Assembly: GCA_964540655.1 (NCBI GenBank)
Contig: CAZINR010000002.1
Coordinates: 1,736 to 57,708 of the forward strand
Origin: an uncultured archaeon
Lineage (GTDB): Archaea > Altiarchaeota > Altiarchaeia > JAFGQM01
DNA length: 55,973 nucleotides
Direction of reading: 5' to 3'
Under the pieces are notes generated by a model that was given only the letters and a program-made list of their open reading frames with translations, was not told the origin of the DNA and did not search any database. Shown piece by piece: positions 2,511 to 24,567 of the stretch. Numbering within the stretch: position 1 is the stretch's first letter; each line of letters opens with the position of its first letter. The position numbers were made by a program, and so were the translations under genes.

Positions 2511-2611
2511 AGCTTAAAAACTCCCTGCCGAGATAATTGACAAATTAATTCTGTAGGATAATTGTACTCCCTGAACTTTTGTTTTTTTCCTTATTGCTGA
2601 AAATAAGCGAG

Positions 2612-2941
2612 ATGAGTAAGAAAAAGGAAAAGGAAGCCACATTAGGAGAACTCTTGGATAGCTTAAACACCGAAGAAGAAATCGATTTAGATAGTACTGA
2701 TTATTTACTTGATTCGTTGGTCAAACATGAATGGGGCTCTAGAACCAAGAAACCAGTAGCCAAGGAAGAATTTGAAAGGTTAAGCGCAACTCTGAAAGAT
2801 TTGATATCGGAACACAGATGGGATGATGCCGAAGAGACCATCGGAAAGATTTATTACTACGAAAAAACTGAGAAAGGGGGAGAGTTCGCCAGACGTGAGC
2901 GGGCGGTTCGGTGGTTACACTCAGCAGTGAATGTAATGTGA
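2612..2941 (+). CDS. hypothetical acidic protein
   Basis: ATG at 2612 (MSKKKEKEATLGELL...). An ORF only, with no recognised domain. Confidence 0.4.
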   Translation: MSKKKEKEATLGELLDSLNTEEEIDLDSTDYLLDSLVKHEWGSRTKKPVAKEEFERLSATLKDLISEHRWDDAEETIGKIYYYEKTEKGGEFARRERAVRWLHSAVNVM

Positions 2942-3091
2942 TGTATTGAGTGAGCATTAGACATCCCTATGTAAACCGATATTGGTCGTCACTATTTCTC
3001 GCAGGGAATAAACTTATGTCTTGCGGATAACTTATTGCGGAGACAACTATTAATCCCTTAACAGCGATAATAATGGGAGTTCACACATCAA

Positions 3092-3967
3092 GTGTCAATT
3101 CCCGAAATGTCTACTGCTTTTAGGAAACTACTGGAGGAAAGGACGCCAGCCGTTCTTGCAGGCGCGCATTCTGGCATCAGCGCAAAGATAGTCGAAGAGT
3201 GCAGCTTTGACGGCATATGGGCCAGCAGTTTTGAGATTTCTTCGCTTTTCGGCGTCCCTGATGCAAACCTGCTTTCGTTTAAAGAAATCTATGATATAGT
3301 CAGCAGTATCAGATCAGCTACTGCCTTGCCAATAATCGTTGACTGTGACAACGGGTACGGTGGTCCGATGAACGTCATCCGCACAGTAAAGGATTATGAG
3401 GCATTGGGCATCGAAGGGGTCTGCATAGAGGATAACCTGTTCCCAAAAAGGTGCAGTTTCTATGAATCGAATAACAGGGGTCTTGAGGATGCAAGGGTAT
3501 TCGCAAAGAAGATAGTTGCTGCAAAAGAGGCCCAGTGCGACCCAAACTTTTTCGTCATCGCTAGGACTGAGGCGCTTATAGCTGGGCTGAGTATGGAAGA
3601 AGCCCTAAGAAGAGCAAGAATGTATGACGACGCAGGAGCCGATGCGATACTTGTGCACTCAAAGAAAACTACAGCTGATGAGGTGAGGGAGTTTGCAGGG
3701 CTCTGGGACTCAAAAACCCCGCTGGTAGTTGTACCCACCAAGTTCCTCTCAGTGTCGTGCAAGGAGCTAGGAGATATGGGATTCAGGATAGTAATCTTTG
3801 CCAACCACGGTCTTCGGGCATCTATAAACGGCATGAGAAAAAGCCTAGCGAAACTAAGGGAAACTGGCATGCAAGAGAGCATATCCGACGGCATCTGCCC
3901 CTTGGAGGATGTTTTTAAGCTCGTAGGCCTTGCGGACTTTTTACAGAAGGAAGAGCGCTACTCATAG
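3092..3967 (+). CDS. isocitrate lyase / PEP mutase superfamily enzyme (PEP-mutase-like, atypical active-site loop)
   Basis: Superfamily hallmarks GVPDAN, IVDCDNGYG and CIEDNLFPKRCS. GTG start at 3092, with an alternative ATG at 3107. Confidence 0.8.
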   Translation: MSIPEMSTAFRKLLEERTPAVLAGAHSGISAKIVEECSFDGIWASSFEISSLFGVPDANLLSFKEIYDIVSSIRSATALPIIVDCDNGYGGPMNVIRTVKDYEALGIEGVCIEDNLFPKRCSFYESNNRGLEDARVFAKKIVAAKEAQCDPNFFVIARTEALIAGLSMEEALRRARMYDDAGADAILVHSKKTTADEVREFAGLWDSKTPLVVVPTKFLSVSCKELGDMGFRIVIFANHGLRASINGMRKSLAKLRETGMQESISDGICPLEDVFKLVGLADFLQKEERYS

Positions 3968-3968
3968 C

Positions 3969-5282
3969 ATGGACGTATTGCTTATAAATCCTGAATTTGC
4001 GGTTGCAGAGAAATACTCTAGTAACCATTTTACAGTGTGGCCGCCACTTGGGCTTCTGTCACTGGCAAGTTATCTGCGCAAGGATGGCCACAGCATACGC
4101 ATATTAGATTTGGCTTCCTATGGCGGGGATAGCTATGCAGCAATGGAACGGGCGCTATCAAAAAATCCAGATGTGGTCGGAATAACCTCCACTACCCCTC
4201 AGTTTGAGAATGCCATTGGCATAGCTAAGCTTTCAAAAAAGCTGTCGGAAGGCTCAACCGTGGTCTTTGGTGGCGTACATGCAACCGTAAAATGGCAAGA
4301 GGTTCTATCTGAAGATAGTGTAGACTATGTTGTCGCGGGGGAGGGTGAAATAGCGTTTAGCAATCTGGTTGACGCCCTAAGCACAGGCAAAAAACCGGAT
4401 TCGCCCGGCATATGCTTCAAGAGCGGCAAATGCCTGAAAAAACTGGGTGGGCAGAGCACAGTCAAGAGCCTAGATGATCTCCCGATACCAGCGTATGACT
4501 TGCTTAATATTCAAATATACCTAGACTATGTTAAACAGACTGAGGGGTTTGAGGGCCTTGCGTACATAGCCAGCAGAGGCTGCCCATTTGAATGCATATT
4601 TTGCGCGGTGAACTGCATGATGGGGAAAAAGCTTAGGCAAAAAAGCCCCGAAAGAACCGTCGAGGAGATAGAATGGCTCATCTCCAAACATGGTGCCGAG
4701 GGGATTTGGTTTAAAGACAGTACCTTCACAGCGGACAGGCGATGGGTGTTAGAGTTCTGCAAAGAGGTAAAAGAAAGAGGTTTGGATTTCGTTTGGAAAT
4801 GCAATACACGGGTGGATTGCGTAGATTCAGAGCTCCTAAGAGCCATGAAAGGCGCCGGATTGGACGGCATTTGGTTTGGCATAGAGTCTGGATCGGATCG
4901 CATCCTAAGGGTATTAAAGAAGGGATATACCACCGATCAAATAATGCGGGCAATGTCGCTTTGTGAGGAGAACGAATTGGCTGTGAGTTCCTGGATGATA
5001 ATTGGTAGCCCGACAGAGGATCTGCAGGACGTGAGGGCCTCAGTCAGGCTCGTCAGGAAGCTAAAGCTTAATAACGTCCATTGGCATACGCTAGTGCCAT
5101 TGCCGGGCAGCGAAATCTATGAGCGCATAGGTGCTATGGCGAAGGACTATTCAGATTTGAGATTTAATAAGGCAGTGATGGCGACAGGTGCGCTTACAAA
5201 GGAACAGGTACAGGTTTTATATGATCAGGTGGTCTGCCAAAATGTAAGCGGCGAACTGGATGAGAGAAAAATAGCATTATGA
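3969..5282 (+). CDS. B12-binding radical SAM enzyme (class B, methyltransferase-like)
   Basis: N-terminal cobalamin-binding-type Rossmann region, then SRGCPFECIFC (CxxxCxxC). The ATG at 3969 abuts the upstream stop. Confidence 0.85.
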   Translation: MDVLLINPEFAVAEKYSSNHFTVWPPLGLLSLASYLRKDGHSIRILDLASYGGDSYAAMERALSKNPDVVGITSTTPQFENAIGIAKLSKKLSEGSTVVFGGVHATVKWQEVLSEDSVDYVVAGEGEIAFSNLVDALSTGKKPDSPGICFKSGKCLKKLGGQSTVKSLDDLPIPAYDLLNIQIYLDYVKQTEGFEGLAYIASRGCPFECIFCAVNCMMGKKLRQKSPERTVEEIEWLISKHGAEGIWFKDSTFTADRRWVLEFCKEVKERGLDFVWKCNTRVDCVDSELLRAMKGAGLDGIWFGIESGSDRILRVLKKGYTTDQIMRAMSLCEENELAVSSWMIIGSPTEDLQDVRASVRLVRKLKLNNVHWHTLVPLPGSEIYERIGAMAKDYSDLRFNKAVMATGALTKEQVQVLYDQVVCQNVSGELDERKIAL

Positions 5283-5285
5283 AAA

Positions 5286-6701
5286 ATGGCACGAATAGCG
5301 CTGATAAATTGTCCGCCCAATGACAACCGGGAGTTCATAAGAGATGCGGTTAAATATGATGAGAAGCTCCCACTGGGCCTCTGTTATATAGCCGCGTATC
5401 TCGAGAGGAATGGTCATAACGCCTTCCTTATAGACGCATACGCGGAGGGGATAGACTCGAATGGCATAGCCGACAGGATCAAAAGGCTAAATCCGGACTT
5501 TGCAGGTGCAACCATGTTGCACCCAAATTCGCAGGAAGTTGGTCTTGTGATGTCAAAGATAAAGGAAGTCACACCTAATGTAACGACCGTTGTCGGGGGC
5601 GTACAGCCCACCCTGGAGCCAGAGTCCGTCCTGAAATCAAACCAGGGGATAGATTTGGCGGTGATTGGTGAAGGTGAAATCACGATGAAGGAGATTATGG
5701 ACAATTTTGATGCCAGAAAAGACTGTAGGAAAGTGCAAGGGGTGGCATACCGAAAAGCGGGAGAAGTGCGGCGATCTGCCGCACGGGAGAGAATATCCAA
5801 TCTAGACATATTGCCGTTCCCCGCTTTGGACAAGATACCGCTGGAGAAATACTGGGGTGAAAAGAAGGTTATGTGTATGGTCACTTCCCGAGGATGCCCG
5901 TTCCATTGCATTTTCTGTGCGAGCAGCGTCTTGTGGGGACATAGCATAACATATAGAAGCATAGAAAATGTTATGGCCGAGATAAGGCATTGGAGAGATG
6001 CATACGGATGCGATTTCTTTTATTTCAATGACATGACATTCACGATTGACCGTGGAAGGATCGATGAATTGTGCAGACGACTCACCTCAGAAGGCCTGGA
6101 CATAGAATGGAAATGCCTTACGCGGCTTGACAACCTCGACGAGGCGTTGATAGCAAGAATGGCCGACGCCGGGTGTAGGGAAATGGCCGTCGGCATAGAA
6201 AGCGGCAACCAGGATATGCAAAGGATGATACGAAAGCATCTTGACTTGAAAAGGGTGAAATGCATGATTAGGACATTGAGTTTGAATAATATAAACGTAC
6301 TGGGGCTTGCGATAATAGGCTTTCCCCGGGAGACGCCAGAGCAGATCCTGGATACTTTGAACTATCTCATATCTCTCAAAGAGGAAGGCATGAAGGAATT
6401 TGATTTGTTCCAAGCAACGCCCTATCCCGGGACAGAGCTTTACAGGATGTGCAATGGTGCTAACCCGCAATCCCACATAATAGAGGACGGCAACTGCTGC
6501 AAGGAACCAGTTATGAAGAAACAGATGAGAAGACACTCCTTCATGCCTTGTTCTTCACCAAACGAGTTCTTCAGCAGTGAAGAGCTGAGGGGGATAATCC
6601 ATCTTACCTACGAACGATTTAAGAGTGGCAAACCGTTATCTATAGACGATTTGAATCTTGGTTGTGAAAAATGGAAGAATCTTCATATGTCAGTGAGCTG
6701 A
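5286..6701 (+). CDS. B12-binding radical SAM enzyme (class B), second paralogue
   Basis: Same architecture, with TSRGCPFHCIFC. The N-terminus MARIALINCPP... parallels the upstream paralogue. Confidence 0.85.
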   Translation: MARIALINCPPNDNREFIRDAVKYDEKLPLGLCYIAAYLERNGHNAFLIDAYAEGIDSNGIADRIKRLNPDFAGATMLHPNSQEVGLVMSKIKEVTPNVTTVVGGVQPTLEPESVLKSNQGIDLAVIGEGEITMKEIMDNFDARKDCRKVQGVAYRKAGEVRRSAARERISNLDILPFPALDKIPLEKYWGEKKVMCMVTSRGCPFHCIFCASSVLWGHSITYRSIENVMAEIRHWRDAYGCDFFYFNDMTFTIDRGRIDELCRRLTSEGLDIEWKCLTRLDNLDEALIARMADAGCREMAVGIESGNQDMQRMIRKHLDLKRVKCMIRTLSLNNINVLGLAIIGFPRETPEQILDTLNYLISLKEEGMKEFDLFQATPYPGTELYRMCNGANPQSHIIEDGNCCKEPVMKKQMRRHSFMPCSSPNEFFSSEELRGIIHLTYERFKSGKPLSIDDLNLGCEKWKNLHMSVS

Positions 6702-8218
6702 ATAGCAAGGTGTTAAGCAACCTGCCAAAGAGAGTGTACGTATACGATTGCACGCTCCGAGATGGGGAGCAAACACCAGGAGTGGTATTTACGGAGGAGG
6801 AAAAAGTGCTGATTGCCGAAGCATTGGAAGGTGCTGGCGTTGACTGTATAGAAGCTGGTTTCCCGACCAACTCCAGTGGCGAGGAGCATGCTGTCGCACG
6901 CGTGGCTGCTTTAGGGCTTAAATCCAAGGTTTCTTGCCTGAGCCGCTGTTTGCCTGGCGATATAGAAGCCTCAATCAGATGCGAGCCGGATCTCGTGCAT
7001 TTGTTCATCTCTACATCGGACATACATCTGCAACATCAGATTAAAAAGAGCCGGGAGGAGGTTTACGGCATGGCCGTAGAGTCTGTGAAAAGCGTAGTCG
7101 ACAGAGGGTTCGAATGCCTGTTCTCGGCAATGGACGCAAGCAGAAGCAATTTGGACTACCTTAAAAAGGTGTATGCGGGAGTAGTTAATGCAGGAGCAAC
7201 TACCATAAACGTTCCTGAGACGGTGAATTCCCTTTGCCCCGAAGCAATGAAATACCTGGTGGGCCAATTAAAGGGGATAGGTGCCAGGATAGACGTGCAT
7301 TGTCATAACGATCTGGGGATGGCCTTGGCAAACACGCTGGCTGCGATCGAGGCTGGGGCCGAGGAGGCACAAGTCACTGTCAATGGCCTTGGTGAGAGAG
7401 CTGGCAATACCAGCCTAGAGCAGCTGGCGGTCATACTCGAGCTGGTGTATGGCGTCAAAACGGGCATAAAGCTGGAGAAGCTCACTGAGTTGTCAAACCT
7501 CATGGCAAAGTACAGCGGCATAGAACCATACCCGCTGCAGCCGATAATAGGAAGGAACGCTTTTGCGCACGAAAGCGGGATTCATGTGCAGGGCATACTT
7601 GAAAGGGCCAAGACTTTCGAGGCCTTTGCCCCAGAGCTCGTTGGTCAGAGGAGAAGACTAGTGCTAGGTAAACATGCCGGAAAGCATGGGGTAGACGCAA
7701 CTCTCAAGTCGATGGGATACTCTGGGTACTCTTCAAGTGAATTGGGAGCCATCAGCAGGCGGGTGAAGGAACTAGCAGAAAAGCAAAAAAAGGTATTCGA
7801 TGAGGACATCAGGGCTATTGTAGACTCGGCACTCGGTAAGGGTCAAGATGAAGGGCCAATCAAACTGGAGGAAATTGAGATAATGACGGGCAACAAGGTG
7901 AAGCCAAGGGCCAAAGTCAGCCTTCGGGTCAATGGCAAGCTGATTGAAGCATGCGGGAATGGAGTAGGGCCGGTAGATGCCGCCATAAGCACAATAGAAT
8001 CGGCGATAAAGGGGTTTGCAAACATAAGGCTCGTGAAGTATGAACTTGCCGCAATAACCGGCGGTACGGATTCCCTAAGCGACTGCAAAGTCACGATAAA
8101 AGACACTATGGGGGAGGACTATGTGGGGCACGCTGTGCATGAGGACATTGTGCAGGCTTCTATCAAGGCCATAATAAACGCCATGAACTCTGCAATGAGG
8201 CGTAGGGGGGGACGGTGA
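6671..8218 (+). CDS. 2-isopropylmalate / homocitrate / citramalate synthase family enzyme (DRE-TIM plus LeuA-type C-terminal domain)
   Basis: YDCTLRDGEQTPG, HCHNDLGMALANTLAA and HESGIH motifs; 515 aa including the regulatory domain. Confidence 0.85.
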   Translation: MEESSYVSELNSKVLSNLPKRVYVYDCTLRDGEQTPGVVFTEEEKVLIAEALEGAGVDCIEAGFPTNSSGEEHAVARVAALGLKSKVSCLSRCLPGDIEASIRCEPDLVHLFISTSDIHLQHQIKKSREEVYGMAVESVKSVVDRGFECLFSAMDASRSNLDYLKKVYAGVVNAGATTINVPETVNSLCPEAMKYLVGQLKGIGARIDVHCHNDLGMALANTLAAIEAGAEEAQVTVNGLGERAGNTSLEQLAVILELVYGVKTGIKLEKLTELSNLMAKYSGIEPYPLQPIIGRNAFAHESGIHVQGILERAKTFEAFAPELVGQRRRLVLGKHAGKHGVDATLKSMGYSGYSSSELGAISRRVKELAEKQKKVFDEDIRAIVDSALGKGQDEGPIKLEEIEIMTGNKVKPRAKVSLRVNGKLIEACGNGVGPVDAAISTIESAIKGFANIRLVKYELAAITGGTDSLSDCKVTIKDTMGEDYVGHAVHEDIVQASIKAIINAMNSAMRRRGGR

Positions 8219-8841
8219 AGGAGACAAAAGAAAGCATTGAGCACCTGGAGCGTGTAGCTGATTGTTTGAGAAAAAATGGGTTCGATGCAAAAGTTTTTAT
8301 CGATCCTAATGGCATGGCCGATTATTTTCTGGATAAGATAGGCGCACATGATACTGTGGGTCTGGGCGGTTCGGTAACTATTGCAGAAACTGGCATAATC
8401 GAGCGGCTGGAGCTCAGGGGCAACATTATCTACAACCCATATGTCCAGCGCACAAGAAAGGAAGAGATGGACACAAGACGGAAGTGTCTACTGTCAGACT
8501 GGTTCATAACTGGGTCAAATGCAGTGACCGAGAATGGCCAGTTAGTCAATGTAGATGGCTTAGGCAGTAGGGTTTCAGCGATAGCATTCGGGCCGAAAAA
8601 TGTTCTGATAGTCGTTGGGAAGAACAAGATAGTGCCTGATGTTGAAGGGGGCTTCCAAAGGATAAAGGATCTGTCAGCACCGAAAAATGCGAAAAGGCGC
8701 GGCAATAAAACACCATGCGTAGACGGTAGATGCCCAGGATATGTCCCCGGGGAATGCATATGCAACATCCAGTCAGTTATTAATGGAGATGCTGCAGGCA
8801 GGATACATATCGCGCTAATATATCAAGAAATGGGCTATTAA
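8215..8841 (+). CDS. LUD-domain (LutC/YkgG-like) protein
   Basis: GTG start overlapping the upstream stop. TGSNAVTENGQLVNVDG and a C-terminal Cys cluster resemble the lactate-utilisation LUD family as I remember it. Confidence 0.5.
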   Translation: MKETKESIEHLERVADCLRKNGFDAKVFIDPNGMADYFLDKIGAHDTVGLGGSVTIAETGIIERLELRGNIIYNPYVQRTRKEEMDTRRKCLLSDWFITGSNAVTENGQLVNVDGLGSRVSAIAFGPKNVLIVVGKNKIVPDVEGGFQRIKDLSAPKNAKRRGNKTPCVDGRCPGYVPGECICNIQSVINGDAAGRIHIALIYQEMGY

Positions 8842-8855
8842 CGGAGCGGTTAAAG

Positions 8856-9959
8856 ATGTACGGCATAGAATCGGATGTATGCAAATTCATAGCAGACGGA
8901 GGTTATGGCAGGATTGTCTACGTCCCTTCGAGCAGTCTGGCTAAGTTGATAAGCCTCATTGAAAAAAGATGCCATTGCGAAGTCGCCACAAACGAGTCGG
9001 AAGCTACTGGGCTTGCAATAGGGTACCATCTTGCGGGCATAAAGCCGATTTTGCTTTGCCAGAGCGATGGTGTTGCTGTCATGTTGAATACCCTGTGCTC
9101 CACATGCTTGCCTTACGGGATAGACCTGCTAGTTCTTGTTGACGTTAGGGGCGGCCCCGAAGAGGAGAATCCCGTACACATACCCTTCGGCCAAGGCTTG
9201 CCGTCAGTTCTGGACGCACTGGGGTTCCCATACCTGGAGGTTCGGAAGAGCGCGGATTTTGAGGGTTTTGTGCTCAAACATGCGAGCAAGCCTAGGCAGA
9301 CACCCTTTTTCCTTTTGATATACCCATCCGCACTGACAAAGCCTGAAAAGAAGAACCCGCGGGATGTTCTGCAGAATCCAGATACAGGTGATACGACAAT
9401 TGATGCATTGAAAAAGATGTTTCCAAGCTCCAAATTCGTTTCCAGTCTTGGCTTGACTAGCCGGTTGCTGCATGGGGGCTGGGACGATAAGCACAATTTT
9501 TATGTGCTGGGATCAATGGGCGATTCCTTGGGCATTGCAAACGCTATATCAAAAACTAATAGCCGAAAGACTGTATGTGTAGTGGGCGATGGAGAGCTCT
9601 TAGCGGGCCTTGGCACTCTGGCAAAGATTGCTATTGACAAAAGTAATCTGCTTGTCGTAGTCCTGGATAACGAATGTCATCTGAGCACCGGAGGACAGAA
9701 CACCCTAACAGCAGAGGGTCTGAGATTTGATTTGGTAGCCAACGCTGTTGGTATCAAGCACACTAAGATGCTAGATGGTGTGGGGCAACTAAACGCCGAG
9801 CTTAATATTATACGCAAGAGCAGGGAGCCCGCTCTCATAGTCATAAAGGCGCAGCGGTGCGTACCGAGTTATCCTAGGATAAGAATGTGCCCTAACGAGA
9901 TAAAACATAGGTTCATGAAAGGATTCGAAAATAGCCCTATTAATGGGGACAAGGGGTAG
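8856..9959 (+). CDS. ThDP-dependent 2-oxoacid decarboxylase, fused alpha-beta, of the phosphonopyruvate / sulfopyruvate decarboxylase family
   Basis: N-terminal NESEATGLAIGY-type PYR domain. C-terminal GSMGDSLG...VGDGELL...LDNE ThDP-binding motif. Confidence 0.7.
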   Translation: MYGIESDVCKFIADGGYGRIVYVPSSSLAKLISLIEKRCHCEVATNESEATGLAIGYHLAGIKPILLCQSDGVAVMLNTLCSTCLPYGIDLLVLVDVRGGPEEENPVHIPFGQGLPSVLDALGFPYLEVRKSADFEGFVLKHASKPRQTPFFLLIYPSALTKPEKKNPRDVLQNPDTGDTTIDALKKMFPSSKFVSSLGLTSRLLHGGWDDKHNFYVLGSMGDSLGIANAISKTNSRKTVCVVGDGELLAGLGTLAKIAIDKSNLLVVVLDNECHLSTGGQNTLTAEGLRFDLVANAVGIKHTKMLDGVGQLNAELNIIRKSREPALIVIKAQRCVPSYPRIRMCPNEIKHRFMKGFENSPINGDKG

Positions 9960-9960
9960 A

Positions 9961-10980
9961 ATGGCGGCATCTTGGAACTTATTGGACTGCACATTAAGGG
10001 ATGGCGGATCAACCATCGGGTTTAACTTTCAGTTTGATGTCATCAATAGGGTACTTACTGGTCTTTCAAACGCAGGCATTGATTATGTCGAGCTGGGCTA
10101 TAGATCGGGGTCAGGGAGCGTACATGTTGAGAAGCCAGGCCCCACAGCTGACGTGAACAGAAGCTTCTTGGAGCAGATTGACTTCAGCACAAAAATAAAA
10201 AAGGCCGTGATGATAATACCTGCGGTTGCCAAAACCGAAGATTTGGATGTCCTTGCCGAATTCGGCATAGACCTTGTTAGGATAGCCGTGTACCCGCATA
10301 ACTTCGAAAATGCCATGGCCTTCGTTGATGCTGCGCTTAGATTGGGGCTTGAGTGCAGCGTGAATCAGATGGCCTCAAGCTATATGAGTGCAGATGACTT
10401 AGTGAAAAATGCTCTCGCAGTACAAGAGTGTGGCGCAAGCGTCTTTTATTTTGCGGATTCGTATGGGCATTTCATGCCGGAGGATGTCAACAGGCGAGTA
10501 GAGGCGTTAAAAGAGCAGTTAGATATGGAAATAGGCTTTCACGCCCATAACAACCTATCGCTGGGTTTATCAAATGCTATTGCTGCTATACGCTCTGGCG
10601 CAGACTTCATTGACGCCTCTCTTTGTGGCATGGGCAGAGGGGCGGGAAATGTGCAGATAGAGCTATTACCGTTCGTTCTTGATCTGGCAGACTTGAGTCG
10701 CCCGCAGGTTGACAAATCAGCACTGATGGAACTAAGTTCCATAATTGCCCCCCTGCGAAAAAATCCGTATTTGGGCACCGCAGAGATAATCTCTGGATCT
10801 TGCAACCTGCATTTCTTTTTCTATGAGCTCATACAACGGGCATCTCAGAAACTGGGCGTTTCGGAAATGGACATTGCGAGGGGGCTAAGTGCAATAAAAC
10901 CAAAGAAGGTAAGCGAGGAGCTGACCTTTGAAGTCGCTAGACAGATTTTATCCAACCATGGAGATAACATTCAGATCTAA
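9961..10980 (+). CDS. DRE-TIM metallolyase, 4-hydroxy-2-oxovalerate aldolase (DmpG)/HMG-CoA-lyase-like
   Basis: ATG at 9961 just after the upstream stop. LLDCTLRDGG and FHAHNNLSLGLSNAIAA motifs; DmpG-like length. Confidence 0.65.
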   Translation: MAASWNLLDCTLRDGGSTIGFNFQFDVINRVLTGLSNAGIDYVELGYRSGSGSVHVEKPGPTADVNRSFLEQIDFSTKIKKAVMIIPAVAKTEDLDVLAEFGIDLVRIAVYPHNFENAMAFVDAALRLGLECSVNQMASSYMSADDLVKNALAVQECGASVFYFADSYGHFMPEDVNRRVEALKEQLDMEIGFHAHNNLSLGLSNAIAAIRSGADFIDASLCGMGRGAGNVQIELLPFVLDLADLSRPQVDKSALMELSSIIAPLRKNPYLGTAEIISGSCNLHFFFYELIQRASQKLGVSEMDIARGLSAIKPKKVSEELTFEVARQILSNHGDNIQI

Positions 10981-11368
10981 GGGCTTCGGAGACTTGCAAG
11001 ATATCACAAAAGAAGTAGAAAAGATTGCGAACCTATCGAGCGTATCAAGCGGCATCATAACCCTATTCATCAGGGGCTCAACAACAGCCCTTGTGATTTA
11101 TAAAAATGATGCGGGTTCCATCCAAGATTTGATGGAAGCGCTTGGGGATCTCGCCCCGGCTGACAAAATATACAAGCACGAACAGACTTCGGGCGACAGC
11201 AATGGCGCGTCGCATATAAAGTCGGGGTTATTGGGGCCCTGCCTCACAATACCCTTTGTGGAAAACGAACTTTGTATCAGCAAAACACAAACAATTTTTG
11301 CCGTAGATTTTGATCCAAAGGAATCAAATCGAAGTATAATTGCGTGTGTATCAAAGGCGGAAGTCTAG
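10958..11368 (+). CDS. YjbQ/UPF0047 family protein (secondary thiamine-phosphate synthase-like)
   Basis: ATG at 10958. Family-typical GIITLFIRGSTTAL...NGASHIKSGLLGP. Confidence 0.7.
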   Translation: MEITFRSKGFGDLQDITKEVEKIANLSSVSSGIITLFIRGSTTALVIYKNDAGSIQDLMEALGDLAPADKIYKHEQTSGDSNGASHIKSGLLGPCLTIPFVENELCISKTQTIFAVDFDPKESNRSIIACVSKAEV

Positions 11369-11435
11369 ATGTAAAGACAGCTTGGATGCATCATTATCTT
11401 ACGGATGAGCAAAGCGGTTTATCATGGTCTCCGAG

Positions 11436-11561
11436 ATGAAGACGAAGATCTTCATAGTCCGTCACGGCAAATCCGAGGGTAACCTGAAGAGATGCTTCCA
11501 GGGCAGGGATGATATGCCTCATATACCCAGCAATTTGCATATTCTCTCAATTGCCACATAG
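11436..11561 (+). pseudogene. N-terminal remnant of a histidine phosphatase (PGAM-like) gene
   Basis: Own translation MKTKIFIVRHGKSEGNLKRCFQGRDDMP carries the RHG catalytic motif. It then runs into the 3' end of the convergent gene and stops after 41 codons. The full-length paralogue at 22058-22645 starts MRAILVRHGKTERSE. Confidence 0.55.
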
Positions 11562-12193
11562 CGGGTGCCCAGGAAATACTGCAGCTGTTTCCTTGCCAAA
11601 TCCATCCCGCCTATGAGTTCATCGAGCAGCTGCCCAGTGCCGATCAGTTCGGCGTATAACTTAATGTCGGGCATCTGCTCGCCGATAGAACTGTAATAAT
11701 TCGCAACCTTTCGGGCAGAATCCCCATCAACTGGAAGAATCAGTCTTAGATCCTTTTCATGTCTGAATGGATTGCGCATTCCGGGAATAAATCTCTCGGG
11801 TATCCCAGCTTCCTTTAATGCCGCGTCCCTATAGCCCATCTGGACAGAGTGTATGCGCGTCTTGTTAGCTGCATAGAAACGGATCACTTCGCCTTTGATA
11901 CTTTCAGGTATCTCCGTCTCGGGTTTTCCGAGCCACGAGCTTATAAGGTCCTCTGCGACTTTCCCATCTTTTTCGCCAAACAAGCGCTCGTATACGCCTA
12001 TGTTGATGATGTCCAGCTTTTTTGGTGTGGGCGTGCTATTTGCCATGATTTTGTCGACGTCAATTCCTGCGCTGTCAAAAATCAAACCCTCCGGAAGGCG
12101 CATCTTGGATGCAGTCCACCTGAATACTGCCTGAAAGGTCGGGCTGCGCTGGATGTTGCCGGAATCCACGCACCTGATTATGCATTTCTCCAT
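11519..12193 (-). CDS. hypothetical protein with a low-molecular-weight phosphatase-like N-terminus
   Basis: CVDSGNIQRSP resembles the LMW-PTP P-loop CxGNxCRS, but the C-to-R spacing is longer. The functional call is weak. Confidence 0.4.
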   Translation of the reverse strand: MEKCIIRCVDSGNIQRSPTFQAVFRWTASKMRLPEGLIFDSAGIDVDKIMANSTPTPKKLDIINIGVYERLFGEKDGKVAEDLISSWLGKPETEIPESIKGEVIRFYAANKTRIHSVQMGYRDAALKEAGIPERFIPGMRNPFRHEKDLRLILPVDGDSARKVANYYSSIGEQMPDIKLYAELIGTGQLLDELIGGMDLARKQLQYFLGTRYVAIERICKLLGI

Positions 12194-12295
12194 TGCATTC
12201 TAGTTAGAGTTCAGAAAAAGAAAAGCCGGCTTTTGATTAACCTCTTTTGACCGGGATGGCGCCCTTTGACCTCAAAGCACGAAGCCTGCTGCCAT

Positions 12296-12536
12296 CTACA
12301 AAGCCGCCAAAGCTAAGGAAGCAAGTGAAGGTCCAACCAATGTAACTGGTTTGAACCGAGGATAATGTCCCGCCTCCCGGAATCTAGGCGCTTCGCGCCT
12401 GTTTTCAGTTTTCTGTCCTGGGTCTTCCTTGGGTTTCCAGCACGAAGGTCCCGACGGGACCTTGTGCGCAGGTTTGTCTTCGGCAAACCTCGCGTTCTCG
12501 GTTTTCGAACTGGTCATTTTGAACACTGTTTTAGCA
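12296..12536 (+). repeat. junction repeat JY3
   Basis: Core at 12368-12381. Hairpin aggcgc-ttc-gcgcct at 12386-12400. Double-module at 12441-12494. Terminal box ggtcattttgaacac. The left flank lacks the GAAGAC arm. Confidence 0.8.
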
Positions 12537-13157: not shown

Positions 13158-13490
13158 GTTTTCTGTTTTCTAACCGGTCGGCGGTCAGGAAGACTCAAGA
13201 CCGATAACTGAAGACTGAAAATAATCCCGCCTCCCGGAAGGTATGCCCTTCGGGCATGTTTTGGGTTTTCTGTCCTGCGTCTTCCTCAGGTTTCCAGTTC
13301 ACTGTTTTCTGTGAACTGGTCATCTGGGAAACCCCGGGTAGGTTAATGAAAGTACAAAGAAAAATTACGCGCTCCGCCCGAATGTCACAAAGTGACATTG
13401 GGCGCAACTTCGCTTCGCGAAGTTCGCGCGCTAAGGACATAAAGGTAGGTGTTACACTACGACATGGACCATATGTAGTGTAAAACGCTC
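13158..13490 (+). repeat. junction repeat JY4
   Basis: taaccggtcggcgg terminus and GAAGAC arm. Core at 13225-13238. Hairpin atgccc-ttc-gggcat at 13243-13257. Hairpin at 13294-13319. Box gtcatctgggaaacc, then A-box acaaagaaaaa. Module at 13378-13429. TTACACTAC hairpin at 13452-13482. Confidence 0.85.
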
Positions 13491-13556: not shown

Positions 13557-14489
13557 ATGTCTTATTTAAGAGAAAAGAGGTCTGGAAAGAAAACTGGAAT
13601 TTACCTCACACAGAGTATACGTCTCAACGGTAAAATCAGGAATATTAGTGTTCTTTTGGGGTACAAACCAATAAGCGACATAGATAAATTAAAAAAACAA
13701 AAAGAGCCGATACTGAAAAAGAAGATAGAGCGGCTTCTATCTTCCGAAAGAGAGGATTACATGCTTTTGTCCGAGCAGGAAAGGCAAACCCTAAAGAATC
13801 TGGCTGAAGCTTATCAAAAAGCCCTCAAAAAATTCGACCCCGTCACCAAACAGAAATATCTTGACTGGTTCCTGACGCAGTTCACTTACGATACCAATGC
13901 GATAGAAGGCTCAAGCGTCCCTCTGGAAGAAGTCGGCCTGATATTATTCGACAAGGTAGTGCCTGCAGACAGGAATTTGAGGGAGGTCTACGAGGTCCAG
14001 AATCATAAGAAGGCATACGATTTCATAAACAAATATGTGGGCGATCTCAACTTTAAATTCATTATGGATGTCCATAGGCGCTTGATGTCAGAGATTATCT
14101 CAGATGCGGGAAAGACGCGTAAGGTTCGCGTGTTTGTAAGGGGATCTGACTTAAAGCCGCCCAAACCGGAAGACGTCTCAAAACATCTGGAAAATCTGGT
14201 CAAATGGTACAAGTCAAACAAATCTTTGCACCCTGTCTTGTTGGCAGCCCATATCCACTCGGAATTCGAGAGGATCCATCCGTTCAGGGACGGAAACGGC
14301 AGGACCGGCAGGCTCCTTCTTAACTTCATATTAATAAAGAACGACTATCCGCCGATAAACATACTGAATGAGAAGAGGGGCGCGTATTATTCGGCCCTTA
14401 GGGCTTGGGACAAAGGCGAAAAAAGACCTTTTGTCGAGCTTGTAATCTCATACATAAAAGACAGTGTCGGTTTTGTCACTAATCCCTAA
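13557..14489 (+). CDS. Fic/DOC family protein (AMPylase-type) with an internal inhibitory helix motif
   Basis: HPFRDGNGRTGRLL matches the Fic motif HxFx(D/E)GNGRxxR. TNAIEG matches the (S/T)xxxE(G/N) auto-inhibition motif. Confidence 0.9.
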   Translation: MSYLREKRSGKKTGIYLTQSIRLNGKIRNISVLLGYKPISDIDKLKKQKEPILKKKIERLLSSEREDYMLLSEQERQTLKNLAEAYQKALKKFDPVTKQKYLDWFLTQFTYDTNAIEGSSVPLEEVGLILFDKVVPADRNLREVYEVQNHKKAYDFINKYVGDLNFKFIMDVHRRLMSEIISDAGKTRKVRVFVRGSDLKPPKPEDVSKHLENLVKWYKSNKSLHPVLLAAHIHSEFERIHPFRDGNGRTGRLLLNFILIKNDYPPINILNEKRGAYYSALRAWDKGEKRPFVELVISYIKDSVGFVTNP

Positions 14490-14855
14490 CCTGTCGGCGG
14501 TCAGGAGGACTCAAGACCGATAACTGAAGACTGAAAATAATCCCGCCTCCCGGAATCCAGGCGCTGCGCCCGAAGGTCCCACCGGACCTTGGGCGCAACT
14601 TCTCTTCGAGAAGTTCGCGCGCCTGTTCACGAGCTTCGACTTCGTCGAAGCTGTGCGCAGGTTCTCCTTGAGAACCTCGCGTTCGGTCTTCTGTTCTGGG
14701 TTTTCCTCAGGTTTGCAGTCCACGGTTTTCTGTGGACTGGTCATCTTGGAAACACCCGGACTTTAACGAAAATACAAAGAAAAACTTATGCGCCTCCGGC
14801 GCAAAGGACATGAATCAGTGTTACACTACAACACGGGCAAGTGTAGTGTAAAACG
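14490..14855 (+). repeat. junction repeat JY5
   Basis: Core at 14541-14554. Double-modules at 14571-14621 and 14628-14681, the latter identical to 1333-1386. Hairpin at 14716-14739. Box gtcatcttggaaacaccc. A-box. TTACACTAC hairpin at 14821-14851. Confidence 0.85.
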
Positions 14856-15643: not shown

Positions 15644-15950
15644 CCGGTCGGCGGTCAGGAGGACCCAAGACTGAAGACCGCAGACCCTTTTCGCCCAAAG
15701 GCGAAAAGTAAAATCCCGCCTCCCGGAATCCAGGCGCGAAGCGCCTGTTCTCAGTTTTCTGTTTTGGGTCACTAGGTTCATCTGCGATGAACCTGTGCGC
15801 AACTGCCTTGCGGGCAGTTCGCGTTTCCCCAGGTTCCCAGTTCACGAGATTCGCCTTTAGCGAATCTGTGCACAGGTTCTCGGAGAGAACCTCGTGCTCT
15901 GCCGGAACCATCTCGGAAACACCTAGAGCGTAAGGAAAGCACAAAGAAAA
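15641..15950 (+). repeat. junction repeat JY6
   Basis: The taaccggtcggcgg terminus contains the NYN stop codon. Hairpin cttttcgcc/ggcgaaaag. Core at 15714-15727. Hairpin aggcgc-gaa-gcgcct at 15732-15746. Double-modules at 15770-15823 and 15843-15896. A-box. Confidence 0.85.
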
Positions 15951-15983
15951 ACATTTTTATCGACTAAGCCCCTAATATACACT

Positions 15984-16519: not shown

Positions 16520-16705
16520 TTCTCAGTTCTCTGTTTTTGCATTCCAACCGGTCGGCGGTCAGGAAGACTCAAGACTGAAGACTGAAAAAGGTCCCGCCTC
16601 CCGGAATGTAGGACCTTCGGCCCTGTCTTCGGTCTTTGTGTGGTTCACTGTCTACGGTCTTGTCTATAGGCCTGACCATTTTGAACACCGGACAGACTAA
16701 CGAAA
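16520..16705 (+). repeat. junction repeat JY7 (short form, no double-modules)
   Basis: ccaaccggtcggcgg plus GAAGAC arm. Core at 16592-16605. Hairpin aggacc-ttc-ggccct at 16610-16624. Terminal box gaccattttgaacacc. Confidence 0.8.
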
Positions 16706-16718
16706 CTATTGACATGAC

Positions 16719-17219: not shown

Positions 17220-17500
17220 GGCTTTCCGTCTTGTCCGGTCGGCGGTCAAGTCGGTCTTCAGTCTTGGGTTTTCAGTCCTCGCTTGGATATCAAAAACCGA
17301 AGACTGTAAACTGTAGACCACTCCCCGAAGGGGAGTAAAATCCCGCCTCCCGGAGGGCCGCTTCGCCCGAAGGTCCCACCGGACCTTGGGCGCAACTTCT
17401 CTTCGAGAAGTTAGCGCGGCTGTCTACGGTCTTCTGTCTAGAGTCTTGGAAAGGTCTTCTGTCTACGGTCTGCGTAGACAGAGCCATTTTGAATCCTGCA
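17220..17500 (+). repeat. junction repeat JY8
   Basis: ccggtcggcgg. An inverted arm copy gtcggtcttcagtcttgggttttcagtcc. Hairpin ctcccc-gaa-ggggag. Core at 17341-17354. Module at 17368-17418, equal to 14571-14621 with 1 difference. Hairpin gtctacg/cgtagac. Box gccattttgaatcc. Confidence 0.8.
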
Positions 17501-20419: not shown

Positions 20420-20505
20420 TTCTCTTGGCTTAGACTGAAAACCTCTCCGGGCAGACCCTGGACTGAAGACCGCAGACCCTTTTCGCCCAAAGGCGAAAAG
20501 TAAAA
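20420..20505 (+). repeat. junction half-repeat JY9 (left arm only) abutting the tRNA-Tyr 3' end
   Basis: agactgaaaacc...ggactgaagaccgcagac, then the hairpin, then gtaaaa. The same left arm occurs in JY2 and JY6. The core here is the functional tRNA 3' end. Confidence 0.8.
20479..20500 (-). terminator. T-tract plus 9-bp hairpin immediately downstream of tRNA-Tyr
   Basis: The minus strand reads ...GGGA TTTTAC CTTTTCGCC TTTG GGCGAAAAG. The same element is copied in JY2 (2354-2375) and JY6. Confidence 0.4.
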
Positions 20506-20616
20506 TCCCGCCTCCCGGATTTGAACCGGGGATCTTCCGGTAACCGTCTTTTCTCAGGCTCTCGCCCGAAAGCAAACTACAGCCAGACGCGTTAAACCAG
20601 ACTACGCTAAGGCGGG
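20506..20616 (-). tRNA. tRNA-Tyr(GTA) with a 35-nt intron at 37/38
   Basis: Manual fold of the minus strand: CCCGCCT-TA-GCGT-AGTCTGGTTTA-ACGC-G-TCTGG-CTGTAG[intron]A-CCGGA-AGATC-CCCGG-TTCAAAT-CCGGG-AGGCGGG-A. C1-G72 is the archaeal/eukaryal Tyr identity pair. No CCA is encoded. Confidence 0.85.
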
Positions 20617-20637
20617 AAAAAGCTCGCTCGAAAGCGC

Positions 20638-20646
20638 GATATATTG
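20638..20646 (-). promoter_or_regulatory. candidate TATA box for tRNA-Tyr
   Basis: The minus strand reads AATATATC about 22-29 nt upstream of tRNA position 1. Confidence 0.35.
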
Positions 20647-20705
20647 CTGATTCTCGGTTAAAAAGCTATTGTTTTTAAGCCTTCTGACTATATTAATTGC
20701 CCAAT

Positions 20706-21653
20706 ATGCCCAAAAAGAAGCCGGAGAAACTCAGGCAGTACCATGGCCCCATAGAGAAGGGTCCCGACGGCAAGTACTATGTTGCGAAGCCGAAGCCAAA
20801 GAAAAAGCCCAAGAAAAAAACCCCCGAGCAGAAGAAGGCCCCCGGCGCCAAATTCGTCCCCCTAACCTTCTCCGAGGGCGGGGTCAGGAGGGGCAGAGAC
20901 CGGGGAGTGCATCTCTCGGATATGCTTGTCGATAAGAGGGTGATGCGCCGCCATTACAAGGACGTTCTGGCGGACAGGGTCTACAACGCTGTCTTCTTCA
21001 ACGGAAAAAAGCTGACCGACCACCCCTGGGAAGGGGATTTCAAGGATTACGTCCGCCGACACCTCGGCAATTACAGGAACTACCGCAAGATGCTGGTAAG
21101 GGCCCTCGTGGCGCGCGAGGTCCTGATGAGGGGCGCCAGCAGCAAGACGGAAGCCGCCGAGCGATTCGGCGACCAGATAAAGACCCAAAGGGCCCGGCTC
21201 GCAGAGATCTCCAGCGCTCTGAGTGATCTAGAAGAGGTCGGCCTGGTGACGACTATAGACGACGTCTTTCATGTCAGCAGGGAATTCCACGCCGACCGCG
21301 CTTCACTGAACTCCCAGGTGCAGGCCGCTAACGAGAGGAAGGGCAGGTTCAAATCCAAGCCCGGGAAGCCCGCGGGCGACATCAGAGCCCGCCGGAGGGC
21401 CGAGCTCAAGAGGCGGGGCCTGCTGCAGCATGTCAGAAAGGTGTCGCCTAAAAAAGCCCTCCACAGGGCCCGCATGTTCGACCTCTACGGCAGAAAAGTC
21501 GAGCCGGACAAGCTCGGATGGAGCGACAGGAGGCTGGTCGCATATCTCGAGGGCATGGAGCTGCCGCCCAAGCAAGGGCTGCATGCGCGCCCCAGGCACA
21601 GGACGCATTTCGGGCCAGGAATGGAGTTCCATGACGAAGGTCCCGAATTCTGA
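20706..21653 (+). CDS. hypothetical highly basic protein (Lys-rich N-terminus, HTH-like middle)
   Basis: ATG at 20706 (MPKKKPEKLRQYHG...). G+C-rich codon usage; no family recognised. Confidence 0.55.
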   Translation: MPKKKPEKLRQYHGPIEKGPDGKYYVAKPKPKKKPKKKTPEQKKAPGAKFVPLTFSEGGVRRGRDRGVHLSDMLVDKRVMRRHYKDVLADRVYNAVFFNGKKLTDHPWEGDFKDYVRRHLGNYRNYRKMLVRALVAREVLMRGASSKTEAAERFGDQIKTQRARLAEISSALSDLEEVGLVTTIDDVFHVSREFHADRASLNSQVQAANERKGRFKSKPGKPAGDIRARRRAELKRRGLLQHVRKVSPKKALHRARMFDLYGRKVEPDKLGWSDRRLVAYLEGMELPPKQGLHARPRHRTHFGPGMEFHDEGPEF

Positions 21654-21685
21654 CCTTTTTTAACTTTAAACTTAACTTAGTGCGA

Positions 21686-22051
21686 ATGCCCCGAGAAGGC
21701 AAACCTCACGGAAAAGGCATCCCAAAAGGCAGGTCTCCCGGCCGCCACGGGGAGGAGTTTGGAAGCAGAGCTCGCGGTTCGAGGGGCAAAAAGCGGCACC
21801 CGTTCCTTGCAGCTGTGGATCGCCTCGAGGCCGGCAGGGGCCTTTCGCCATCCCAGCTGGAAACTGTGAGGGGCATTGCACTCTCGGTCTTCGAATCCCG
21901 GGATCAGCGGCTTCCGGCGGAAGAGGTTTTAGTCCGGCACGGCGTCAGGGACCGACGGAGGCAAAAAGAGGTTCTGACCGTATTGAACGACCTCGGCTTG
22001 CTCAAGAAGGCGCACGGGCATCTGACCATACCCGAGTGGCACCGCGAGTGA
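21686..22051 (+). CDS. hypothetical basic protein
   Basis: ATG at 21686; ORF only. Confidence 0.45.
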   Translation: MPREGKPHGKGIPKGRSPGRHGEEFGSRARGSRGKKRHPFLAAVDRLEAGRGLSPSQLETVRGIALSVFESRDQRLPAEEVLVRHGVRDRRRQKEVLTVLNDLGLLKKAHGHLTIPEWHRE

Positions 22052-22057
22052 TCCTTG

Positions 22058-22645
22058 TCAGAATAGCCCCAGAACCTTGCCCCCCTCCAGCCGTATCTCC
22101 TCGGCGGATATCTTGTCCACCTCGAGGGCTATGTACTTCGAATAGTCGGGCACCTTCTTGCAGGCCTCCTCGCACGGGATGTCCAGGAAGAGCGACAGCA
22201 TCGCCATTATCGGGCACCGGTGGCTCACCACCAGCACCGTGTCGTTCAGGTGCCTTGAGTAGAGCTCTTCAACGAACCCTTTAACCCTCTTCTTCAGCTC
22301 GCCGAACTCCTCGCCGCCGGGAGCGTCCCGGTCGCAGAGGCTGAGATACTCGTCCCAGCACTCGCTGTGATGCTTGCCCTGATGAGAGCCATAGTCCCTC
22401 TCCCGCAGCCTGTCCCTCAGCTCGTAGTCCACCCCTTTGTGATGCCTGGCTATGATGTCGGCCGTCTCGACGGACCGCTCCAAATCGCTGACGTACATCA
22501 CGTCTATCCTGACGTGCTTCAGCTCGTCCGCCAGCTTCTCAGTCTCCCTCCCCCCGTTCTTCGAGAGGCCTCCGTCCAGCTGCCCCTGTATTATCCCCTT
22601 CTCGGACCTCTCGGTCTTTCCGTGCCTAACCAAGATTGCTCTCAT
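22058..22645 (-). CDS. histidine phosphatase family protein (phosphoglycerate-mutase-like)
   Basis: N-terminal LVRHGKT (RHG motif) and later VSH, the second catalytic His region. Confidence 0.85.
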   Translation of the reverse strand: MRAILVRHGKTERSEKGIIQGQLDGGLSKNGGRETEKLADELKHVRIDVMYVSDLERSVETADIIARHHKGVDYELRDRLRERDYGSHQGKHHSECWDEYLSLCDRDAPGGEEFGELKKRVKGFVEELYSRHLNDTVLVVSHRCPIMAMLSLFLDIPCEEACKKVPDYSKYIALEVDKISAEEIRLEGGKVLGLF

Positions 22646-22764
22646 CCCCGTTCTTCCGCTAATATTAACGTCAGTTATACAAAAAGATGGGGCATTTGGT
22701 TTAATTTCTCAACTTCAGACTTGCTAAAAGAATTTTAATTCTTTCAAGTGTTATATCCATCAGA

Positions 22765-23220: not shown

Positions 23221-23262
23221 CTGGTCCCAGAAGCCCGCCAGCGACATTTACATGCTAGGCAC

Positions 23263-24522: not shown

Positions 24523-24567
24523 GGGTTGTTATCGGGTTCAAGGCTTAAATATCTTATGTGCGAATCA

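Follow-up and report, generated by a model that had tools for sequence, protein, structure and literature searches.

What does the closely packed set of biosynthetic genes near the start of this archaeal DNA make, and how did it come to lie where it does? The stretch analysed here (hereafter the window) comprises 55,973 nucleotides of contig CAZINR010000002.1 (positions 1,736 to 57,708, forward strand) from an uncultured member of the Altiarchaeota (assembly GCA_964540655.1), and the genes in question form one cassette of 10 kb, enclosed by two copies of a repeat, with a phosphoenolpyruvate (PEP) mutase-like protein (PepM-like) encoded at one end and an aldolase and a YjbQ protein at the other. 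An initial annotation of the sequence had described a small-molecule pathway, for either a phosphonate or an unusual methylated 2-oxoacid, that travels in an archaeon as mobile cargo amid addiction modules. Our analysis supports that description and tilts it to the phosphonate option: the cassette is probably a horizontally acquired phosphonate operon of the RhiG (rhizocticin-type) branch. The product, as had been cautioned, cannot be named from sequence.

Eight genes lie in the same direction on the + strand between 3092 and 11368, overlapping or abutting (junctions between consecutive genes of -38, +3, -31, -4, +14, -17 and -53 nt), a spacing that argues for an operon. In order, they encode the PEP-mutase-family protein (3092–3967, PF13714 198 bits; the database gene call begins at ATG 3107 and gives 286 aa); two B12-binding radical S-adenosylmethionine (SAM) enzymes, each with PF02310 and PF04055 (enzyme 1, 3930–5282, cluster motif CPFECIFC; enzyme 2, 5286–6701, cluster motif CPFHCIFC); a LeuA-type enzyme condensing 2-oxoacids with acetyl-CoA (6671–8218; PF00682, PF22617 [HCS_D2] and PF08502 [LeuA_dimer]); a LUD-domain protein (8215–8841; PF02589 124.9 bits); a fused (alpha+beta) thiamine diphosphate (ThDP)-dependent decarboxylase of the phosphonopyruvate/sulfopyruvate decarboxylase family (8856–9959); a RhiG-type, HMGL-like aldolase (9943–10980); and a YjbQ/UPF0047 protein (10928–11368; PF01894 88 bits; TIGR00149 72.1 bits, above the cutoff of 67.75). 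The products of all eight genes match Pfam or NCBIfam models essentially end to end, indicating that the genes are intact, and the families, common strand and tight packing given in the initial annotation were all recovered with these two databases.

The strongest evidence for a phosphonate pathway comes from the sequences of the aldolase and the YjbQ protein, which point to the rhizocticin branch. The aldolase had been called DmpG-like, and while its membership of the HMGL-like aldolases stands, its type is that of RhiG and not that of DmpG: among 31 discriminating alignment columns it agrees with RhiG at 22 and with DmpG at 1, and it matches PF00682 only, without the DmpG C-terminal domain (PF07836). 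The scores against the DmpG/BphI families fall below their cutoffs (NF006049, 206.6 bits against 229; TIGR03217, 181.9 bits against 286). Its motif reads RDGGS, without the histidine of the DmpG RDGSH, and a histidine occupies the position of a DmpG tyrosine; the HMGL-like barrel and the subfamily residues are held in common with the Bacillus rhi aldolase. The nearest relatives (49–35% identity), which include proteins named ‘aldolase’ from Bacillus spizizenii and B. tequilensis, all lack PF07836; genuine DmpG enzymes come in only further down, at about 30%. Individual values were 49% to protein P0124 and to the aldolase of locus L087, 40% to P0127 (L090) and P0128 (L092), and 37% to the aldolase of the Bacillus spizizenii-type, rhizocticin-type locus L089. 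No gene for a DmpF-like partner acetaldehyde dehydrogenase occurs in the cassette. RhiG itself condenses phosphonoacetaldehyde with oxaloacetate to 2-keto-4-hydroxy-5-phosphonopentanoate, a reaction described as biochemically verified in the part of PMC8942020 that cites Borisova 2010.

The surroundings of the closest aldolases strengthen this placement. Five RhiG-type neighbourhoods, comprising six loci (L087–L092), were examined; PepM, phosphonopyruvate decarboxylase (Ppd) and aldolase genes occur together in all five, and a YjbQ gene in four. The Bacillus rhi-type loci L089 and L091 encode Ppd-alpha, Ppd-beta, aldolase, PepM, a ScmC-like protein, YjbQ, an aminotransferase, a glutaredoxin, a metallophosphoesterase and an ATP-grasp protein; L092 encodes PepM, Ppd-alpha/beta, aldolase, the ScmC-like protein and YjbQ; L090 encodes aldolase, YjbQ and aminotransferase; and in L087 and L088 a PepM gene is accompanied by a fused Ppd gene that overlaps the aldolase gene. 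The window has the same order, a Ppd-family gene (8856–9959) overlapping the aldolase gene (9943–10980) and then YjbQ, with the PepM-like gene in the same operon. The ppd-rhiG-ppm arrangement is treated as diagnostic of a rare branch making up 1.6% of PepM neighbourhoods in one census, for which the relevant portions of PMC8942020 and PMC13579937 name bacterial examples only. The YjbQ protein of the window is 35–40% identical to those of L089 (11048–11446) and L090 (1459–1914); L091 (6930–7328) and L092 (6071–6475) also carry the gene, which recurs in RhiG-type clusters, usually after the ScmC-like (PF27840) gene. Canonical PepM proteins are encoded in L089, L091 and L087. The one in L092 (1971–2921) has a non-canonical EDA...SS loop, IEDAGSLGKRSS, showing that positions 116 and 122 vary among proteins that occupy the PepM slot.

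Is the window's own PepM-like protein a plausible first enzyme for such a route? It aligns over its full length with canonical PEP mutases, scoring 244 bits against PDB 5unc and 227 bits against the Mytilus enzyme 1m1b, compared with 206 bits against phosphonopyruvate hydrolase and at most 127 bits against lyases (petal death protein, methylisocitrate lyase and others), so that the grouping with methylisocitrate or dimethylmalate-type lyases, set beforehand as the counter-case to the initial annotation, was not found. Its best NCBIfam family is TIGR02320 (282.5 bits), it nests inside the PepM radiation in a rough neighbour-joining tree without bootstrap and with the hydrolase as outgroup, and it is 45% identical to RhiH; its nearest relative, at locus L001, is 60% identical. 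Nine of the ten active-site residues listed are kept, namely S46 and the Mg2+/substrate ligands D58, D85, D87, E114, K120, S123, R159 and H190. The gating loop reads EDNLFPKRCS in place of the PepM signature EDKX5NS, which in Mytilus numbering amounts to K116N and N122C, or two of the five specified motif residues; K116 is the lysine of EDK, distinct from the catalytic K120, which is conserved.

This loop, written EDN-x-FPK-R-CS for the group, is that of a large clade. N and C stand at the two loop positions in 101 of the 120 nearest relatives, among which EDK...NS and EDN...NS forms also occur, and in the rough neighbour-joining tree these intermediate forms sit at the base of the clade, which has thousands of metagenomic members. 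A clade profile retrieved 80 genome loci (L006–L085, bringing the PepM-clade loci to 85 in all, L001–L085), 73 of them with the N/C loop, from Acidobacteriota, Myxococcota (including Sorangium cellulosum So ce56, L032), Planctomycetota, Binatia, Nitrospirota, Streptomyces (for example Streptomyces sp. NRRL F-5123, L082) and Kitasatospora. Among the 80, a Ppd gene is present in 47, a PntC-like nucleotidyltransferase gene in 37, a 2-aminoethylphosphonate (AEP)-type class-V transaminase gene in 23, an aldehyde dehydrogenase gene in five and an iron-dependent alcohol dehydrogenase (Fe-ADH) gene in three, and PhnY-like and PhpC-like genes also occur in these neighbourhoods. These are the surroundings of ordinary phosphonate loci, in which the clade thus stands in the place of PepM and may carry out its reaction.

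Some further features of the clade were recorded in passing. One member is fungal (P0119, Aspergillus violaceofuscus); a motif-based census reportedly counted zero fungal PepM proteins, and our literature searches on fosfonochlorin and fungal PepM returned nothing on motifs, while those on Sorangium phosphonates returned no paper. In L033, L034, L048 and L068, genes for EDN...CS PepM-like proteins and Ppd lie back to back with a gene for a B12-domain radical SAM protein. In L034 (7180–9877) the latter is HpnJ, beside HpnI, the two forming a hopanoid pair; it was considered as a counterpart of the window's radical SAM enzymes and set aside as an unrelated hopanoid gene. The juxtaposition with HpnJ/HpnI may point to hopanoids decorated with phosphonates, or to an envelope locus that the two gene sets share.

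The decarboxylase is very divergent, and its full-length match to TIGR03297 (Ppd) reaches 162.1 bits. The ThDP motif GDG...N and the activating glutamate are present, with E47, G244, D245 and N272 in invariant columns of the family. Exhaustive searching with HMMER yielded 2,722 relatives, with 35% identity for the best; TIGR03297 is matched at E <= 1e-60 by 43 of the 50 nearest and the ComE model strongly by four, and neither ComDE family cutoff is reached (TIGR03845, 76.7 bits against 147.95; TIGR03846, 113.9 bits against 221.5). A grouping with ComDE, likewise named in advance as the counter-case, was thus not observed. The closest relative (P0243, 35%) is encoded two genes from a PepM-family gene with the loop EDNAFPKICS, which indicates that the variant mutase and this decarboxylase subgroup recur as a pair. 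The sole relative found in a word-indexed search (P0122, 28%) lies in a cluster of nucleotidyltransferase-PepM, Fe-ADH and Ppd genes.

The sequences show the gene families and subfamilies, the recurrent gene associations, the boundaries of the cassette and its truncation; from these we infer each catalytic step, the order of the steps and any continuing function of the pathway. The PepM-family enzyme, with its EDN...CS loop, would convert PEP to phosphonopyruvate, and the fused decarboxylase would convert this to phosphonoacetaldehyde, pulling the unfavourable mutase equilibrium forward. The aldolase, with the YjbQ-family protein as a putative partner, would then condense phosphonoacetaldehyde with oxaloacetate or pyruvate to give 2-keto-4-hydroxy-5-phosphonopentanoate. 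By analogy, the cassette may work like the front half of the rhizocticin pathway. Later steps would diverge from the route to APPA (2-amino-5-phosphono-3-pentenoate), a departure indicated by the absence of genes for a ScmC-like protein, an aminotransferase and ATP-grasp ligases: the LeuA-type condensing enzyme could take up the 2-oxoacid or else phosphonopyruvate itself, the two B12-domain radical SAM enzymes would probably carry out C-methylation or other radical tailoring, and the LUD protein may also act on the route.

The closest known systems are accordingly rhizocticin (rhi) of Bacillus subtilis/spizizenii ATCC 6633 and the APPA-type clusters built on a RhiE/F-RhiG-RhiH core, which have the same combination of PepM-family protein, Ppd, RhiG-type aldolase and YjbQ, and in which, as here, a Ppd gene lies directly upstream of the aldolase gene and overlaps it. 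The likeness has limits. The rhi PepM has an EDK...NS loop and the window protein EDN...CS; the rhi Ppd is split into alpha and beta subunits, whereas that of the window is fused and very divergent. The window lacks the ScmC-like gene, aminotransferase, glutaredoxin, threonine-synthase-like self-resistance gene and ATP-grasp ligase of rhi, so its product is neither APPA nor rhizocticin and, with these late genes missing, the cassette falls outside the rhi/APPA cluster family. It adds, in turn, the two B12-domain radical SAM enzymes, the LeuA-type synthase and the LUD protein, and its host is archaeal.

The pathways to phosphinothricin and FR-900098, offered earlier as the analogues, are less close than this Ppd, RhiG-type aldolase and YjbQ branch. 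They share with the window, as does the fosfomycin pathway of Pseudomonas, an HMGL-fold enzyme (FrbC/Pms/Psf2) that condenses acetyl-CoA and is encoded with PepM, and such condensation is a known way to trap phosphonopyruvate (PMC8942020). Architecture sets the window synthase apart. It has the catalytic domain, the subdomain and the LeuA_dimer regulatory domain of LeuA/CimA-type enzymes, exceeds the cutoff of the isopropylmalate synthase (IPMS) subfamily NF002085 (590.9 bits against 517) and has LeuA as its best solved relative (3rmj, 255 bits); with this full LeuA-type architecture it is not obviously FrbC-like, and no aconitase or isocitrate-dehydrogenase homologues follow it in the cassette. 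That it traps phosphonopyruvate or elongates a 2-oxoacid product is plausible. For the LUD protein, searches gave no NCBIfam match, no PDB sequence match and no informative relative.

The two radical SAM enzymes are paralogues (31% identity), and both have the class B architecture, with a B12-binding domain and a CxxxCxxC motif, as do the methyltransferases Fom3 and PhpK, here too beside PepM and Ppd genes. Unlike those enzymes, they score far below the family cutoffs. Neither reaches any NCBIfam cutoff, including those of the characterised methyltransferase families (PhpK, Fom3, Sden_1168, TokK): the best match of enzyme 2 is the Sden_1168 P-methyltransferase family (180 bits against a cutoff of 575), scores against the PhpK family are 103–130 of 600 bits, and similar scores are reached by BchE, ApyD and HpnJ. 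Among solved structures, the best relatives are AprD4 (6fd2), which is a non-methylating dehydratase, 9ccb, CysS and TokK. With no family cutoff reached and AprD4 as best solved relative, ‘methyltransferase’ is a likelihood and no firmer. A scan of metagenome contigs for enzyme 2 found no close relative, the best being 26–28% identical.

How the operon reached this genome is indicated by its boundaries. The 15-nt repeat core TCCCGCCTCCCGGAA occurs in eight copies in the window, all on the + strand (0.25 expected by chance), starting at 2381, 12368, 13225, 14541, 15714, 16592, 17341 and 20506, the last being the 3' end of a tRNA gene (20506–20616). The copies at 2381 and 12368 flank the biosynthetic operon with none between them, and the single cassette between two repeats that had been proposed is thereby borne out. 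Each core is part of a modular boundary element of 100–300 nt, in one orientation throughout, which in alignment consists of a module similar to the tRNA 3' flank, a run of about 18 nt that repeats the tRNA 3' end exactly, and hairpin-rich modules whose stems vary through compensatory changes. These elements (1329–1530, 2320–2505, 12296–12530, 13170–13365, 14486–14785, 15653–15952, 16537–16708, 17293–17471 and 20445–20561) delimit an array of at least eight cassettes. The left boundary of the operon cassette (2320–2505, + strand) has the tRNA 3'-flank-like module, a core at 2381–2395 and hairpins, and belongs to repeat families D1, D2, D5 and D8; the right boundary (12296–12530, + strand), with its core at 12368–12382, was located from repeat families, the core search and alignment, and its left module is atypical when aligned with the other boundaries.

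In size, the biosynthetic operon far exceeds every other unit of the array. The other units are small and encode ParE, YoeB, Fic, NYN, and KaiC with V4R and UbiA; since the operon has no internal boundary and is surrounded by such small ParE, YoeB, Fic and NYN units, its description as one cassette among addiction modules is structurally correct. The G+C content is 0.478 in the cassette, 0.45 in the rest of the island and 0.562 in the backbone; that of the cassette is foreign, and horizontal acquisition of the operon is the most likely explanation. The array resembles an integron-like or serial tRNA-att integration system. No integrase gene was found in the part of the array and island inside the window, and a comparison of the boundary core with viral contigs gave a single 18-nt chance match with no further similarity. 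The backbone carries archaeal markers, PurP (DUF1246/DUF1297) and two intron-containing tRNAs, both found by Rfam and missed by ARAGORN in bacterial mode.

Several other features lie around the operon. An open reading frame (ORF) of 120 aa (2579–2941, + strand), whose likely start is an internal ATG (MSKKKEK...), ends 150 nt upstream of the PepM-like gene and has no Pfam or NCBIfam match. Between the tRNA genes at 20506–20616 and 26185–26303, the interval 20617–26184 encodes a Lys/Arg-rich protein of 318 aa, a full-length histidine phosphatase (His_Phos_1; 22058–22645) and, at 23263–24522, a protein of 419 aa bearing an SLT (lytic transglycosylase) domain, which is unusual for an archaeon; the G+C content falls to 0.50 at 24–27 kb, and this interval may be a second integrated element. 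Elsewhere, HepT/MNT or PIN toxin-antitoxin genes flank two unrelated phosphonate-type loci (L001, 67–691; L091, 11045–12792), echoing the addiction-module surroundings of the window cassette.

The 3' end of the operon is damaged. Downstream of YjbQ, an ORF at 11424–11561 (+ strand) reads MVSEMKTKIFIVRHGKSEGNLKRCFQGRDDMP, which matches PF00300 (E = 3e-4) as a histidine-phosphatase N-terminus with its RHG motif, and then runs into unrelated sequence until a stop after 45 codons. Over 27 aa, this remnant shares 67% identity with the His_Phos_1 protein encoded at L001 (where the closest PepM-like relative is also found), and its recognisable homology stops approximately where a convergent gene on the - strand (11519–12193) ends. 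The truncated phosphatase, together with the atypical left module of the right boundary, indicates that a rearrangement replaced the operon 3' end, and the convergent gene probably arrived with it. That gene encodes an orphan protein of 224 aa, and the label ‘phosphatase-like’ given to it earlier is unsupported: it has no Pfam or NCBIfam match, its resemblance in the PDB to low-molecular-weight protein tyrosine phosphatase (LMW-PTP) is not significant (E = 0.28), and its N-terminal VDSGNIQRSP is a degenerate imitation of the P-loop of LMW-PTP/ArsC (VCLGNICRSP), the nucleophilic Cys being replaced by Asp, so that neither the CX5R(S/T) loop with its cysteine nor a significant match places it in that family. 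A single-sequence AlphaFold2 model was unusable (pLDDT 33). Nor does the cluster look complete, as had been thought, given the truncated phosphatase gene and the absence of dehydratase-candidate and aminotransferase genes of the APPA route.

A number of these results weigh against a working phosphonate pathway and have to be set beside the evidence from the aldolase. The PepM-like protein does not have the diagnostic EDKX5NS motif, and Asn122, which contacts the phosphoryl group in solved PepM structures, is Cys; its TIGR02320 score lies below the curated equivalog cutoff of 319.55. The decarboxylase is below every curated cutoff (for TIGR03297, 312.5 bits). Its matches to the halves of ComDE add up to 114 + 77 bits, comparable with the 162 bits for Ppd; the same ambiguity between Ppd and ComDE holds for the two relatives nearest to it, and the second of them (P0244; L096, 10001–16617) has no PepM gene within 10 kb. 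The literature searched yielded no report of an assay on any member of the EDN...CS clade. Counterparts of the LeuA-type, LUD and paired radical SAM genes were found in none of L001–L085, L086 (the locus of a Ppd relative) and L087–L092, which leaves operon structure as the tie between these genes and the phosphonate core. The Pfam and NCBIfam annotation of the cassette contains no transporter, self-resistance gene, aminotransferase or ligase, and with its 3' gene truncated the pathway may be incomplete or dead.

In sum, the mutase and the decarboxylase fail the strict family tests of motif and cutoff and pass the contextual ones. EDKX5NS is the field's criterion for telling PepM apart from the rest of the isocitrate lyase (ICL) superfamily (PMC8942020 and PMC12723261). 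A relaxed criterion by Acker et al. (bioRxiv 10.1101/2020.11.04.368217) admits proteins with at most two motif residues missing if Ppd (TIGR03297) or MpnS is encoded within 5 kb; here exactly two residues are missing, and the decarboxylase gene starts 4.9 kb downstream, but its 162 bits fall short of the TIGR03297 cutoff.

The alternatives were rated independently of one another, so their probabilities overlap with that given to the phosphonate operon. One takes the cassette for decaying cargo, a donor phosphonate pathway that once worked and is now an incomplete, non-functional remnant, either recent or sheltered among addiction modules. The gene truncated after 45 codons beside an atypical boundary element would fit this, as would the lack of aminotransferase, dehydratase candidate, ligase, transporter and regulator genes in the cassette and an arrangement (two B12-radical SAM enzymes with LeuA-type synthase and LUD) that is a singleton in every collection searched. 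Yet eight enzymes are full length, with CxxxCxxC in both radical SAM enzymes, GDG...N and Glu47 in the decarboxylase, and RDGEQ and HxH in the synthase all intact, and the tight, translationally coupled junctions are preserved; the lost gene may moreover be dispensable, a full-length His_Phos_1 gene being present at 22058–22645. We consider such decay unlikely.

A second alternative keeps the scaffold and changes its chemistry: the EDN...CS enzymes, with Cys for Asn122, would not act as PEP mutases and would make a different 3-substituted pyruvate, such as sulfopyruvate or another 2-oxoacid; the ComDE-like decarboxylase and the aldolase would work on this in turn, and the product would be a sulfonate or a plain methylated 2-oxoacid. 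Two motif residues have changed, including a known phosphoryl-binding one, and the loop ‘PKRCS’ recalls the one that carries the catalytic cysteine in isocitrate and methylisocitrate lyases. Between Ppd and ComDE the decarboxylase stands at equal distance, and the neighbours of P0244 in L096 are a B12-radical SAM protein, a fusion of 3'-phosphoadenosine 5'-phosphosulfate (PAPS) reductase-like and ferredoxin domains, a radical SAM-SPASM protein and a nonribosomal peptide synthetase-like gene, with no PepM nearby; that locus may hold a sulfonate-type pathway. The LeuA-type enzyme, for its part, passes the cutoff for ordinary 2-oxoacid synthases. The clade neighbourhoods, however, are of phosphonate type (Ppd, AEP transaminase, PntC-like, PhnY-like and PhpC-like genes), EDK...NS and EDN...NS intermediates stand at the clade base, the aldolase and YjbQ relatives examined all lie in PepM clusters whose PepM proteins are canonical or near-canonical, and the cassette has no sulfite-generating or cysteate-related gene. 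On this balance a different heteroatom or chemistry seems rather improbable.

It is also conceivable, with a slim chance in our estimate, that the EDN...CS proteins form a sister group of PEP mutase with a function of their own and, together with a divergent decarboxylase that co-evolves with them, make a 3-substituted pyruvate that is not phosphonopyruvate, or else form the carbon-phosphorus (C-P) bond in a cysteine-dependent manner. An arsenic precedent for mutase chemistry, BsnN, the C-As ‘mutase’ of bisenarsan, was examined and rejected, as it belongs to the phosphoglycerate-mutase family and does not have the ICL/PepM fold. Were the distinct-sister proposal true, the operon would specify an archaeal natural product of a new class, tailored by radical SAM enzymes, and motif-filtered censuses would either miss much C-P potential or lump in a different chemistry.

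Primary metabolism, with coenzyme M synthesis (ComDE), coenzyme B or leucine-type 2-oxoacid elongation (AksA/LeuA) and methanogen-type B12 radical SAM methylases, can point to the matched ComDE halves (114 and 77 bits), to the IPMS cutoff passed by the synthase and to TIGR04014 (glutamine methyltransferase of methyl-coenzyme M reductase) among many sub-threshold radical SAM matches, but is very improbable given a G+C content of 0.478 against 0.562, att-like repeats, the surrounding toxin-antitoxin, Fic and NYN cassettes, a PepM-family protein, RhiG-type aldolase and YjbQ with no role in those pathways, and no ComDE or radical SAM family cutoff reached; the primary-metabolism setting that the initial annotation had named as its counter-case was not found, the genes lying instead in a low-GC, att-bounded array with ParE, YoeB, Fic and NYN.

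Antibiotics and herbicides have come from phosphonates, which also form a significant pool in the phosphorus cycle. If the cassette is, as we think probable, a phosphonate operon of the RhiG branch, then the union of a RhiG-type core, in a mobile cassette array of an archaeon, with a tailoring set absent from the other loci searched implies a phosphonate scaffold that has not been described. For the YjbQ/UPF0047 family, which is widespread and has no agreed function, the RhiG-type clusters give a concrete pathway context in which it may be tested. The PepM-like protein, finally, is a C-P-forming candidate from a large clade whose members the EDKX5NS filter discards although they lie in textbook phosphonate neighbourhoods, and this bears on a possible undercount of producers in censuses of phosphonate biosynthesis.

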